In this document: positions 9,001 through 24,659 of the stretch, piece by piece
Layout of the letters: each line of letters begins with the position of its first letter
Numbering within the stretch: position 1 is the first letter of the stretch
Origin: Candidatus Poribacteria bacterium
Lineage (GTDB): Bacteria > Poribacteria > WGA-4E > PCPOR2b
DNA: 64,000 nucleotides
Direction: 5' to 3'
NCBI GenBank assembly: GCA_965218095.1
Contig: OZ244587.1
Span: 6,272,001 to 6,336,000, forward strand
Notes under the pieces: generated by a model
What the model saw: only the letters and a program-made list of their open reading frames with translations
The model's database searches: none
What the model was told of the DNA's origin: nothing
Program-made: the position numbers and the translations under genes

Positions 9001-9750
9001 TTGCTCGGTTTTTCCCGGTCAACCCTCTACTGTCAACCGGCTACAGAGTCAGCAGACAATCTGCATCTGATGAGACAAATAGATGAGCACTATCTGCAAA
9101 CCCCTTTCTATGGGAGTCGTCGAATGACACAACATCTTAAGCGGCTTGGCTACCGTGTGAACCGCAAACGCATCCAGCGACTGATGCGTTTGATGGGTAT
9201 AGAAGCGATTTATCCCAAACCCTCAGCCATCAACAGCGAGCATCGGATTTACCCATACCTATTACGGGACTATGAGGTGACCGCTGCCAATGAGGTCTGG
9301 TCGGCTGACATTACCTATATCCCGATGGATAAAGGGTTTATGTATCTGGTGGCGATACTCGACTGGTATAGTCGTTACGTCATCACTTGGGAGTTATCCA
9401 ATAGTCTATCAGGGCAGTTCTGTCTCGACGCTTTGCATCACGCATTATCTGGGGCAACCCCCATCATCTTCAATACTGACCAAGGTGTCCAGTTTACAGC
9501 CAATGCTTTCACCGATACGGTCGAAGCCGCTAGTATTGCTATGAGTATGGACAGCGTGGGGAGAGCCATTGACAACATTTACATTGAGCGGTTTTGGCGA
9601 AGCGTCAAGTATGAAGATGTTTATCACAAACTTTACCAAACAGGGCAAGCCCTGTTTGATGGATTAACTCAATATATCCGTTTCTATAATCAACAGCGAC
9701 CTCACCAGAGTCTAAATTATGCTACCCCGGCTGAGGTCTATCTGAGCTAA
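9001..9750 (+). CDS. IS3 transposase OrfB (DDE), expressed by -1 frameshift
   Basis: YGSRRM, WSADITYI, NTDQGVQF, DNIYIERFWRSVKYE, RPHQSL. Confidence 0.9.
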   Translation: MLGFSRSTLYCQPATESADNLHLMRQIDEHYLQTPFYGSRRMTQHLKRLGYRVNRKRIQRLMRLMGIEAIYPKPSAINSEHRIYPYLLRDYEVTAANEVWSADITYIPMDKGFMYLVAILDWYSRYVITWELSNSLSGQFCLDALHHALSGATPIIFNTDQGVQFTANAFTDTVEAASIAMSMDSVGRAIDNIYIERFWRSVKYEDVYHKLYQTGQALFDGLTQYIRFYNQQRPHQSLNYATPAEVYLS

Positions 9751-11702: not shown

Positions 11703-11981
11703 ATGGCAAAACGAAGAAGATTCACACCCCAATTTAAGGCGGAAGTCGTTATTGAGGCACTTACCAACCAAAGTTCACAAGCGCAACTCTGTCGACAACA
11801 TAACCTCAGCGAAGAACAACTATCAAAGTGGAAACACCAACTCCTTGACAACGCAGCGATTCTCTTTGAATCCACTGATAAGCAATCCAACGACTCTAAA
11901 GAGCGGATTGCTCAACTGGAGCAACTCCTCGGTCGATTGACCCTAGCATTAGACATCCAAAAAAAGCCTCGACTTGGCTGA
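11703..11981 (+). CDS. IS3 transposase OrfA
   Basis: RRRFTPQFKAEVV..SQAQLCRQHNLSEEQLSKWK. Confidence 0.88.
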   Translation: MAKRRRFTPQFKAEVVIEALTNQSSQAQLCRQHNLSEEQLSKWKHQLLDNAAILFESTDKQSNDSKERIAQLEQLLGRLTLALDIQKKPRLG

Positions 11982-12822
11982 CTTGAATCGGTTTCAAAAG
12001 CGACAGATGGTTGAGGCTTTACAGACCGATTACTCGGTTCGACACATTTGTGAGGTTCTCGGCTTCAATCAGAGCAGTCTCTATTATCAATCTAAAAGCG
12101 ACCCCTTAGAGCTAGTGCTACGAGATGAAATCGAAAAACTATCTGCCCGTTATCCGAAATATGGCTATAGGCGTATCACGCAGTTGCTGTTGCGTATGGG
12201 ATACACGGTCGGTTACCGACGCATCGCCCGATTGATGAAAGCGGATAATCTGTGGGTCGCCGTAAAATGTGGCAGTCAAACCACCCAATCGTTTGACTGT
12301 GTTGGTCAATCGGTCAATCGGGTTGAGAATCTTGACATCTGTCGAAGCAATCAAGTTTGGGTCGGTGATATTACCTATGTCCGACTCAAAGGACAATTCG
12401 TCTATGTTTCGGTGTTAATCGATGTCTTGACCCGAATGATAAGAGGTTGGCAGATGAGTCGGCACTTGACACAACCTCTCACATTAAGACCGTTGCAACA
12501 GGCATTAAGCCAAAGCATTCCAGAAATTCATCATAGCGACCAGGGAGTTGAGTATCTTCCGACAGCCTATATTTCCACGCTTATCGGTCATGGGGTTGAG
12601 ATTTCCTTAGCGCATTGGGGGTGTCCGTGGGAGAACGGCTATGCTGAGAGGCTGATAAGAACCCTCAAGGAGGAAGAGGTCCATCTCAATGACCACGATG
12701 ATATAATGGATGCCAGAGCGCGAATCGGTCATTTTATTGGACAGGTTTATAACCAGAAACGACCTCACTCGGCGTTAGGGTATTTGACGCCAGTTGAATT
12801 TGAGCAAAAACACTTGTCTTAA
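11974..12822 (+). CDS. IS3 transposase OrfB (DDE)
   Basis: YGYRRI, WVGDITYV, HHSDQG, ENGYAERLIRTLKEE, RPHSALGYLTP. Confidence 0.88.
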   Translation: MADLNRFQKRQMVEALQTDYSVRHICEVLGFNQSSLYYQSKSDPLELVLRDEIEKLSARYPKYGYRRITQLLLRMGYTVGYRRIARLMKADNLWVAVKCGSQTTQSFDCVGQSVNRVENLDICRSNQVWVGDITYVRLKGQFVYVSVLIDVLTRMIRGWQMSRHLTQPLTLRPLQQALSQSIPEIHHSDQGVEYLPTAYISTLIGHGVEISLAHWGCPWENGYAERLIRTLKEEEVHLNDHDDIMDARARIGHFIGQVYNQKRPHSALGYLTPVEFEQKHLS

Positions 12823-16477: not shown

Positions 16478-17281
16478 TTACAAATCGATGCCTGTTGCGC
16501 CTATAATGAGCATCGTTTTGGGATTTTGTACATACCCAATAATAGAAGCGTTTTTGATGACGACCGAAGAAGGCACAGATAGTTCGACCTGTCCATTGAC
16601 TGCTTTGCTGAACTCAATCGTTTCAAATGCCCGCACGACGTTTTCATGTTTTAATGTACGCCCGCTATTTTCGCCGCTTCGAATATGCTGTGTAATTTCG
16701 CGCTCAACCAAAGTGACATGCAATACACTTTGCCCTGGAGCCTTGGACACCTTAAATTCAACGACCACTTTACCGGAGTCAAGCTTTGCACGCGGTTTTA
16801 ATATCACATTGACCCCGTCGTGCGAACGGGATTGCTTCAACGCTGAGTTGATTGCCGAAGTTCCTCGTCTTCGATCGGAACCCACAAATGCTTGCGTTCC
16901 ATTGACAATCATTTGTGGCGTGTAAATCCGTCCTGAATGCGTAACTTGAGCGTATCTTCTTTGACGGTTTGAATAACGGCTATCACTAAATGGGTCCTTC
17001 CATCCAAGATAATTCCAGTAATCTACATGAAAAGCCAAGGCAAAAATCTGTTGATTTTCTTTACGGGCGCCCTGCTCGATTTCGCTGAGAAACTTCTCAG
17101 CCGGCGGACAACTGGATCACCCTTCTGATGTAAATAATTCCACGACAGCGAATGGGAGTGGCGCTCGTTGAGCGACAGAATTAGAATCGTTTCTTCCTGA
17201 CAATTGAGCTTGAGCACTGCCCCACAGAATCAAAAGTAAGAGTAGGCAGGCAATTTGCGAGAACAAACCTTGAATCTTCAT
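16478..17281 (-). CDS. Exported DUF1223 thioredoxin-fold protein, probable selenoprotein (UGA 17117-17119, UxxC)
   Basis: Signal peptide; VVELFTSEG-TGA-SSCPPA in frame with AFHVDYWNYLGWKDPF..YTPQ..GEN.GRTL.HENVVR; SECIS-like hairpin downstream. Confidence 0.85.
17084..17101 (-). promoter_or_regulatory. Putative bacterial SECIS hairpin
   Basis: mRNA GCUGAGA-AGUU-UCUCAGC starting 15 nt after the UGA; G then U in the apical loop. Confidence 0.7.
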
Positions 17282-17381
17282 TGTTGCTCCCTCTTTAGTA
17301 TAAATTGCTACTCTGAGCAAGGCATCTCACCAAACACGGTCACAAAGCCCTCCGCTTCGTTCAGAGTGATATTGCTTTATA

Positions 17382-17579
17382 TCATCTTCGTTGAGAACTT
17401 CGCATCCTGCGGCGGTAAACCACCAACCACATCACTATCGTGGCTGGTTCCGGGAACGAGTCCGCCGTGAAGTTGTTAAAGTTGAAGCCGCTACCACTTA
17501 CATAGGAGAGAACAACCTCCTGTCCAATGGCAACTCTATTATCGGTCGAGAAGTCAAAAACGTCATCTCCAAATCTCAT
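17382..17579 (-). pseudogene. Short ORF ending in a PEP-CTERM-like tail (probable remnant)
   Basis: FPEPATIVMWLVVYRRRMR: PEP, short hydrophobic stretch, basic cluster. Confidence 0.35.
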
Positions 17580-23631: not shown

Positions 23632-24659
23632 CTAGCTCGTTGTCCATGTAAACACAACCTTGCCACTTCGTGAGCTGTCAGCAACCTGGTAGGCTTCAGC
23701 GCCATCTGCAATGATGAACGGATGTGTTACGATTGGTGTAAACGAAAGCTTTCGTCGATCCAGGAAATTGACAAGGTCATAGGATTGCTGGAGCGGCAAG
23801 ACGAAAGACCCCATCAGTGTCAATTCCCGATTGATAATCTCGGTTGGATTGATTACGCGCTCGTCATTCCCGATGCCGACAAAAGCAGCTTTCCCACCAC
23901 GTCGGAAGCACTTCACGGCATTTATTCGACCCGATGGGCCGCCTGACGCCTCGAAGGCGAGGTCACACCCATCAGCTCCAGCGATGTCACGGATAACATT
24001 GTGCGTATTCTCTTTCTGTGCGTTAATCCCGACGTCTGCGCCAATCTGTTTTGCCAGATTGACGCGCTCATCAATAACGTCTACGCCGATAACGTATCCG
24101 CCCATCGCCGTTGCCAGCAGCACGCCGCTCAACCCGACAGGGCCCAGCCCAAAACCGCGAGCGTTGTGTTTCCCGACACATCGAGTTTCCGCATGGCAGA
24201 ATAAGCAGTCCCGCCGGCACAGGCAATAAATGCGCCATCGGTGAAGCTCACTGACTTCGGCATGACCACACAGTTGCGCTCATCGGCGAGCATGAAATCG
24301 GCATGTGAACCGTCAATGGGACCACCGTAACCTCTGGTCTCAGGACACCACTGAAAATATCCAGCCGCACAGTGTTTGCAATGCCCACAGCCACGATAGT
24401 GGTTAATGCAAACCCGGTCGCCAACTTTAATGCGGTTCACGCCCTCACTGATTGCCTCAACCACACCACTTGGCTCATGACCGGGGATGCGATTTTCTCG
24501 TCCTTTGAAGTGCTCAGCACTGCGACGATAGATGTGCAGGTCGCTCCCGCAGATGCCCGTTGTTTTCATACGGACAAGCACTTCCCCAAAGCCCGGTTCC
24601 GGATCAGGAAAGTCTTTGACTATTGCTTTTCGATCTCCTAAAAAAACGACCCCTTTCAT
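23632..24659 (-). pseudogene. Zn-dependent alcohol dehydrogenase with single-base frameshift in GxGxxG
   Basis: GICGSDLH, GHEPSG, CGHCKHC..C; adding one T at GTTTTGGG (~24152) restores VFGLGPVGLSG. Confidence 0.85.

Follow-up and report, generated by a model that had tools for sequence, protein, structure and literature searches.

The DNA analyzed here, referred to as the window, is a stretch of 64,000 nucleotides (nt) from Candidatus Poribacteria bacterium (contig OZ244587.1, positions 6,272,001 to 6,336,000), and its minus strand carries a gene of the DUF1223 family (PF06764) interrupted by a single in-frame TGA. The frame runs from 17281 to 16478 and comprises 267 codons, the TGA at codon 55 (17119..17117) being its sole break. 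The first-pass annotation, made from the sequence alone, interpreted two open reading frames (ORFs), 17117..17320 and 16478..17038, as one frame broken within ELFTSEG-U-SSCPPA and encoding an exported 267-residue selenoprotein. The two ORFs do share a frame on the minus strand, with a gap of 81 nt between the TGA and the TTG of the downstream ORF, and read-through translation from the ATG at 17281 to the TAA at 16480..16478 yields 267 residues with selenocysteine (Sec, U) at position 55 in FAVVELFTSEG-U-SSC-PPAEKFLSE. The read-through product gives a Pfam DUF1223 match of 196.6 bits (cut-off, 30.7) over model positions 1-202 of 202 (residues 46-252); the model is covered end to end, and the domain therefore continues across the TGA. 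Furthermore, the product retains 30 of the 30 columns that are invariant in a 20-sequence alignment of the family, including the motifs DYW..GW.D, RQ..Y, YTPQM.VNG, F.GS, and GEN. By eye, its N-terminus has the look of a signal peptide, with the h-region IACLLLLLILW and A-Q-A, the likely cleavage point, immediately before Q26. Routine annotation breaks the gene, as had been anticipated: a public protein collection lists it as a 186-residue piece (P0002) and a 54-residue piece (P0122).

The TGA was said to stand where the family has the first Cys of its CxxC motif, and comparison of homologues bears this out. Among 161 homologous loci, collected from metagenome and genome contigs together with one relative, all 158 with a readable codon at this position have TGT or TGC (158/158), and none has TGA; in the other three a contig end cuts the codon off. 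Fifteen nt past the TGA begins the predicted perfect hairpin, GCUGAGA-AGUU-UCUCAGC (17101..17084), with a 7-base-pair (bp) stem, an energy by itself of -9.4 kcal/mol, and an apical loop 22 nt past the UGA. Published criteria for the bacterial Sec insertion sequence (bSECIS), as quoted in PMC13188914, comprise a small loop with G, a stem of 4-16 bp, a spacing of 16-37 nt, and an energy below -7.5; the hairpin at the locus falls within these limits, with its 4-nt loop, G at loop position 2 followed by U, 7 bp, and 22 nt. The fdhF-type bSECIS of Escherichia coli likewise lies directly 3′ of the UGA inside the coding region and has a small loop with G then U. The fdhF SECIS has a GGUC loop plus a bulged U, whereas the loop in the window is AGUU and no bulged U is evident.

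The hairpin is not exceptional as a structure. The 66-nt fold is only modestly unusual (z = -2.16; 5 of 200 shuffles are equally stable), and when the same 16-37-nt interval was scored in the 158 Cys-form homologues as a control for chance, a simple hairpin of equal or greater stability was found in 8, only 3 of which show G at loop position 1 or 2. By itself the hairpin is thus roughly a 2-5% event, and its weight derives from its coincidence with a TGA on the redox Cys. Cys-form hairpins also occur in exactly the register of the window, for example GCCGAUGAGGCCGUCGGC, and the coding stretch of the family therefore has some built-in tendency to fold here. In the two nearest Cys forms with DNA, the same 18 nt forced into the stem-loop give +3.6 and +9.7 kcal/mol. 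Several Cys forms (L063, L086, L164, L074, and others) carry a 7-9-bp hairpin at a spacing of 22 with the loops AGGC, AAGC, or AAGU, encoding P-A-D-E-A-V-G; such hairpins could be either the vestige of a Sec form that has disappeared or a sign that the coding stretch is prone to fold.

The host genome, a single contig of 6.35 Mb that contains the window, encodes the complete set of Sec genes that the first-pass annotation had proposed looking for: SelA (527 bits), SelB (353.7 bits, its gene ending 94 nt ahead of the tRNA-Sec gene), tRNA-Sec (76.6 bits, anticodon tca, beside selB), and a Sec-type SelD (371 bits), all scoring above curated cut-offs. The selD gene itself has one in-frame TGA (KTCG-U-AAKV), followed at a spacing of 17 by UCAGUCC-AGUU-GGACUGG, and a Prx-like AhpC/TSA gene (WRGQY-U-PKD) has a TGA followed at a spacing of 16 by GUUCUCC-AGUU-GGAGAAU; a 7-bp stem with an AGUU loop is thus common to the hairpins of DUF1223, selD, and the Prx-like gene. 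Eleven further genes, namely FdhA, three AhpC/TSA proteins, a deiodinase-like protein, DUF3179, UGSC, two HMA proteins, and two Trx-like proteins, have a TGA inside the Pfam domain, G at loop position 1 or 2, and a spacing of 16-23, a range that includes the DUF1223 element. In total, at least 13 other genes have a TGA in a known selenoprotein-type domain (L187, L196, L198-L203, L206-L210). The selenoproteome of the host is large for a sponge-associated bacterium, and the true count is probably above 13 because the scan is insensitive. A genome scan for AGTT loops gave 12 matches, compared with about 5 for an average tetraloop, an enrichment that is unconvincing alone, with domain support for only 3 of the 12; one match, to Metallophos, was dropped since its TGA lies upstream of the domain. 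A codon-usage scan for in-frame TGA gave 225 candidates, was weakly discriminating, and missed both the window site and selD; it served only as a source of candidates, 20 of which were submitted to Pfam. No Pfam family was found for 6 of these 20, and one candidate (L213) proved to be two adjacent genes.

The TGA form recurs outside the window. Among 401 Planctomycetota genomes sampled, 40 have DUF1223, and many of the matches contain one TGA. In the TGA-bearing planctomycete loci that were fetched, the TGA occupies the codon of the motif's first Cys (ELF(T/S)SQG-U-xxC-P) in 17 of 18, the remaining one being a fragment. Of these 17 TGA forms, 15 have a 6-8-bp hairpin in the register of the window (22 nt), with the loop AGUU in 14 and AGGC in one, and two of the U-NG-C type have a different hairpin, GGCCA-GGU-UGGCC. 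Six planctomycete Cys forms lack a comparable hairpin (-0.1 to -4.0 kcal/mol). SelA exceeds 425 bits in all five TGA-form genomes tested and was found in one of five Cys-form genomes, at 233.6 bits; these genomes are possibly incomplete, so that absence is no proof. A TGA without TGA-containing homologues had been named as an outcome that would speak against a selenoprotein; 17 Planctomycetota genomes share the TGA codon, with a covarying hairpin. Nearer to the window, the closest relatives among the best 120 protein matches are P0003 (74% identity), P0005 (65%), and P0087 (59%), which together with P0002 are the only N-terminally truncated calls in that set and begin just past the motif. To judge from these protein sequences, the truncated starts of the three relatives would fit the effect of a TGA. 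Their DNA is not among the 160 loci scanned, where the best match is 52% identical, and a protein search with the 54-residue N-terminal ORF returned a single candidate, its own entry P0122, and is uninformative on relatives.

The window and the 15 in-register planctomycete sequences were aligned for an analysis of covariation. In these 16 sequences, 97.3% of the alignment cells are paired, and four of the seven stem pairs show compensatory changes (C-G/U-A/G-C, G-C/C-G/U-A, G-C/A-U, and C-G/U-A). The covariation score was reached by none of 500 shuffles, and sliding the partners by 1-3 columns reduced pairing to 31-55%. The compensating bases lie in separate codons (Ala with Gly, Ser, or Arg; Glu or Asp with Leu, Ile, or Val; Glu or Lys with Phe UUC/UUU), and therefore the encoded residues change jointly. 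Such joint change across the stem is selection on RNA.

The locus is very probably one intact gene for a genuine Sec-containing DUF1223 protein, with decoding of the TGA as Sec predicted; the machinery in the genome, the pairing of the TGA with Cys codons, the features of the hairpin, and the TGA homologues are all favorable to the selenoprotein originally proposed. With the ribosome at UGA55, SelB-GTP with Sec-tRNA(Sec) would bind to the G/U-containing loop of the hairpin, 22 nt further downstream, and deliver Sec in place of termination. The resulting 267-residue precursor would be exported by its N-terminal signal peptide, and the mature protein would consist of a thioredoxin-fold domain followed by a beta-sandwich, with U-S-S-C at the N-terminus of helix 1. 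This center may cycle between the selenol/thiol and selenenylsulfide states, and reducing power, possibly drawn from a DsbD-type membrane protein, could be passed to substrates in the envelope, for instance methionine sulfoxide reductase (Msr).

That the TGA is a sequencing or assembly error confined to this record has a vanishingly small likelihood. One wrong base in one assembly would look alike; yet this kilobase is present in 13 public runs from four studies, four of them RNA runs from sponge metatranscriptomes, and in the contigs of one run per study (X1, X3, X5, and X8) all read TGA at 17117..17119, with 17084..17119, which covers the TGA and the hairpin, identical to the window, while some differ elsewhere, at 17051 (synonymous) and 17068 (Ala to Thr). 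One DNA run (X1) is possibly the source of the record itself, and the other three are different data. One of these four runs is an RNA library, and a single contig of it, spanning 16940-17304, takes in the start codon as well as the TGA and the hairpin, which is compatible with transcription of the gene. Over the conserved part at 16943..17058 only, X3 and X5 additionally contain contigs that match the window at 90-95% and then diverge with the same loose end; they are probably a second DUF1223 gene of another organism in a similar sample. A pseudogene, in which a nonsense mutation turned TGC or TGT of a Cys-type DUF1223 gene into TGA next to a coincidental hairpin, would need a single base change, and both the chance hairpins of the Cys forms and the rarity of DUF1223 in the phylum of the window (2 of 176 genomes) are in keeping with it; however, the stop lands at the single codon expected to encode Sec, the remaining 212 codons are open with every invariant column kept, the TGA is preserved in strain variants from the four studies, the loop and stem resemble those of selD and the Prx-like gene of the same genome, and 15 other genomes show the TGA together with a covarying hairpin. 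Decay of a Cys gene is accordingly very unlikely. Similarly little credence is given to two separate products, i.e., a 54-residue exported peptide and a 186-residue protein starting at TTG 17038, or to decoding of the UGA other than as Sec, whether through a near-cognate tRNA or because the genetic code has changed. Gene callers do output exactly these two ORFs (P0122 and P0002), but a 186-residue protein of this kind would be missing its signal peptide along with strand 1 and the redox motif of the fold; among ordinary stops in the genome, TGA is the most frequent, ending 1048 of 2613 open frames of at least 300 codons, and the code is therefore not reassigned; and the in-frame TGAs that were found fall on Cys or metal-ligand positions with hairpins.

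Set against a Sec-containing product, several observations carry weight: hairpins of similar stability arise in Cys forms, the second DUF1223 gene in the phylum is a Cys form, the relatives in the subclade of the window (P0003, P0005, and P0087) are represented by truncated protein calls only, and the RNA contigs reveal neither strand nor level and may derive from DNA content. Furthermore, the window protein has an identity of 27-36% with the planctomycete Sec forms as against 37-55% with Cys forms, and the recurrence therefore sits in a distant branch of the family. In both quick and careful trees, the window and the three truncated calls cluster next to three Cys forms (support 100/98), and the 15 planctomycete Sec forms constitute a separate long-branched clade (100/99). 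One united Sec group appeared in none of 200 bootstrap trees, and free trees nest the window clade among Cys forms. Approximately unbiased (AU) tests do not reject a single Sec clade (p = 0.879; 0.749 without the motif and hairpin columns), and constrained searches gave higher likelihoods than the quick free trees; the tested group comprised 19 Sec and truncated rows, with L239 and L240 omitted as too short and L235 outside it. A claim of independent origins of the Sec form was dropped on account of these tests. We favor, with moderate confidence, the view that Sec-containing DUF1223 is an uncatalogued and taxonomically broad selenoprotein family, present in a sponge-associated lineage and in many Planctomycetota, whose SECIS is either one ancient element maintained across phyla through compensatory changes, even at the cost of altered residues, or has arisen repeatedly on a fold-prone stretch.

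A structure model built from 20 sequences (mean predicted local distance difference test [pLDDT], 85.7; predicted template modeling score [pTM], 0.80) suggests strands (E) and helices (H) at E44-51, H58-74, E78-85, H101-114, E123-126, E130-133, and H137-151. In this model, the order strand-helix-strand-helix-strand-strand-helix is that of a thioredoxin fold, with U55 and C58 predicted between strand 1 and helix 1; a putative beta-sandwich domain follows at residues 158-266. By alignment and model, the invariant T121-P122 directly precedes E123-126 and would occupy the position of the thioredoxin cis-Pro loop. Foldseek ranked as the nearest structures 2axo, HBP35 of Porphyromonas gingivalis, an Omp28 domain (2r2c), and the C-terminal domains of DipZ. 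The first of these, Atu2684 (AGR_C_4864) of Agrobacterium tumefaciens, belongs to the same DUF1223 family with ELFTS-x-GC-x-SCPPA, is the best fold match (E 1.6e-16; template modeling score, 0.72 on the target), and is also matched by phmmer (E 2.2e-26, residues 42-243, including GC-x-SCPPA), although it has Cys at the position of the TGA. 2axo is classed as thioredoxin-like (PMC3091736), and the literature covered assigns it no function. The second match, HBP35 (5y1a; E 5.6e-9), and the fourth, DipZ of Mycobacterium tuberculosis (2hyx; E 1.2e-4, root-mean-square deviation 18.7), likewise combine extracytoplasmic thioredoxin-like and beta-rich domains; both are Cys proteins with 9-16% identity to the window protein, and the resemblance is one of architecture only. 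NCBIfam gave weak matches to Omp28 and MJ0307-type thioredoxin models, both far below the cut-off. Elsewhere in the family, two planctomycete Sec-form DUF1223 proteins (L255 in G269 and L256 in G244) bear a C-terminal extension of about 500 residues with one weak transglutaminase-core match, L253 (G197) has a second DUF1223-like half, and the metagenome loci L089, L094, L095, and L099-L105 carry tandem DUF1223 paralogues, C-SS-C beside C-PT-C or C-PG-C. The features of the gene in the window are collected below.

Features of the DUF1223 gene with its predicted Sec codon, with positions in the window and the basis of each assignment
Feature	Position	Strand	Remarks
Whole gene with one in-frame TGA	16478..17281	-	267 codons + TAA (16478..16480); DUF1223 across the TGA
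Shine-Dalgarno-like AGAGGGAG	17287..17294	-	5 nt before ATG (17281..17279); read directly from the sequence
Putative signal peptide, residues 1-25	17207..17281	-	By eye; helix 3-25, then low-pLDDT linker 21-38 in the model
Sec55 TGA (predicted), first position of the U-S-S-C redox motif	17117..17119	-	Cys codon in readable homologues
Partner Cys58, TGT codon	17108..17110	-	Partner of Sec55 in U-S-S-C
SECIS upper hairpin (predicted), encoding A-E-K-F-L-S	17084..17101	-	Sequence, fold energy, likeness within the genome, covariation
Thioredoxin-fold domain (predicted), residues 44-151	16829..17152	-	Structure model; PDB 2axo by sequence and by fold
C-terminal all-beta domain (predicted), residues 158-266	16484..16810	-	Structure model; fold matches 2r2c and 5y1a

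The DUF1223 family is large, with at least 8000 candidate proteins, and has a solved structure. Sec would make the attacking residue more nucleophilic. A Sec form identifies the motif's first Cys as the nucleophile of catalysis, which favors a redox role for DUF1223. In the Cys-form neighborhoods, for which 134 of 231 listed flanking ORFs at 85 loci were analyzed, Msr is the immediate neighbor at five of the 85 loci (MsrA at four, MsrB at one). The planctomycete Cys form L125 has the gene order DsbD-DUF1223-MsrA, MsrA or MsrB also lies beside Cys-form DUF1223 in L036, L040, L064, and L131, and P0110 is an MsrA-DUF1223 fusion protein; the remaining Cys-form neighbors are mostly unrelated to each other. 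No other functional hint recurs in the family, and the association with Msr is itself weak. As regards a role in methionine sulfoxide repair, the Sec forms themselves are unfavorable: neither an Msr link nor a conserved partner was found at the 16 planctomycete Sec-form loci, three of which have rnpA or yidD nearby, and the neighborhood in the window (mnmA, efp, accB, and aro genes) shows neither of the two. The chances appear about even that the protein is an exported thiol-disulfide oxidoreductase, possibly serving the repair of methionine sulfoxide in the envelope.

Table 1 of a May 2026 review (PMC13188914) lists 119 prokaryotic selenoprotein families or subfamilies, and DUF1223/PF06764 has no entry in it. 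None of the NCBIfam selenoprotein models matches the read-through protein. A full-text literature search yielded nothing that joins DUF1223 and selenoprotein, although the supplements of selenoproteome papers, which might list the family, lay outside the search. In the literature naming DUF1223 there was none on selenium, nothing was found for COG5429, which we take to be the COG number of the family, and PF06764 gave drug-code matches only. The UxxC selenoproteins in Table 1 of PMC13188914 include Trx (PF00085), Grx (PF00462), DsbA-like (PF01323), thiol:disulfide interchange (PF13098), and DsbG-like proteins. As in these proteins, the predicted Sec of DUF1223 takes the place of the N-terminal CxxC Cys, where helix 1 begins, and is accompanied by a coding-region bSECIS; in them too, Cys homologues far outnumber Sec forms, and several are exported. 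By contrast, PF06764 is a separate Pfam family with an added C-terminal beta-sandwich. Sec-containing DUF1223 joins the thioredoxin-fold UxxC selenoproteins with a coding-region SECIS, and its mechanism is not new. The bacterial selenoproteome would thereby gain a family unlisted in the 2026 catalogue, one whose gene routine annotation splits. Furthermore, the 16 aligned sequences offer a clean natural case of RNA structure constraining protein sequence, and the DUF1223 element is a good system for SECIS evolution within a coding region. The sponge-associated host genome is rich in selenoproteins, and a full survey of its selenoproteome may pay off.

Two further genes of the host genome with in-frame TGA belong to families that likewise have no entry in Table 1 of the same review. 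The first is an alpha-2-macroglobulin homologue (G000:C1:259734, plus strand; L197/L257), in which the TGA stands at the thioester Cys (YPYG-U-IEQTT) and is followed by the hairpin CGGGA-GUUU-UCCCG; a literature search on this protein gave nothing relevant. Its relatives L258 and L262 have a TGA on the same Cys, followed by a hairpin, and one TGA is likewise found in this stretch in G002 and in 10 of 10 genomes of genus g11, which belongs to another family. The Cys forms have TGC or TGT and carry Lys in place of the stem-forming Gly of the Sec forms. A further in-frame TGA occurs at C1:259182 in the copy of the host genome. If Sec takes the position of the thioester Cys, this alpha-2-macroglobulin may form a selenoester, and it is the foremost of the additional uncatalogued candidates in the genome. 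The second gene (G000:C1:5450817, minus strand; L216) encodes a Meth_synt_2 protein, cobalamin-independent methionine-synthase-like over residues 36-370, with an in-frame TGA in FGFHL-U-RGNQ and the hairpin CAGCC-GGU-GGCUG at 19 nt.

Elsewhere in the window, the coding region of a zinc-type alcohol dehydrogenase (23632..24659, minus strand) is divided between two ORFs, ADH_N at 24129..24659 and ADH_zinc_N at 23632..24132, which lie in different frames and adjoin near 24130; the cause is a frameshift, whether genuine or introduced by assembly. Between mnmA and the DUF1223 gene lies a 65-residue ORF (17382..17579, minus strand) that gave no Pfam match and has, by eye, a PEP-CTERM-like tail, PEPATIVMWLVVYRRRMR. 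Two IS-type integrase ORFs (rve, HTH_21) are located on the plus strand at 9001..9750 and 11974..12822.

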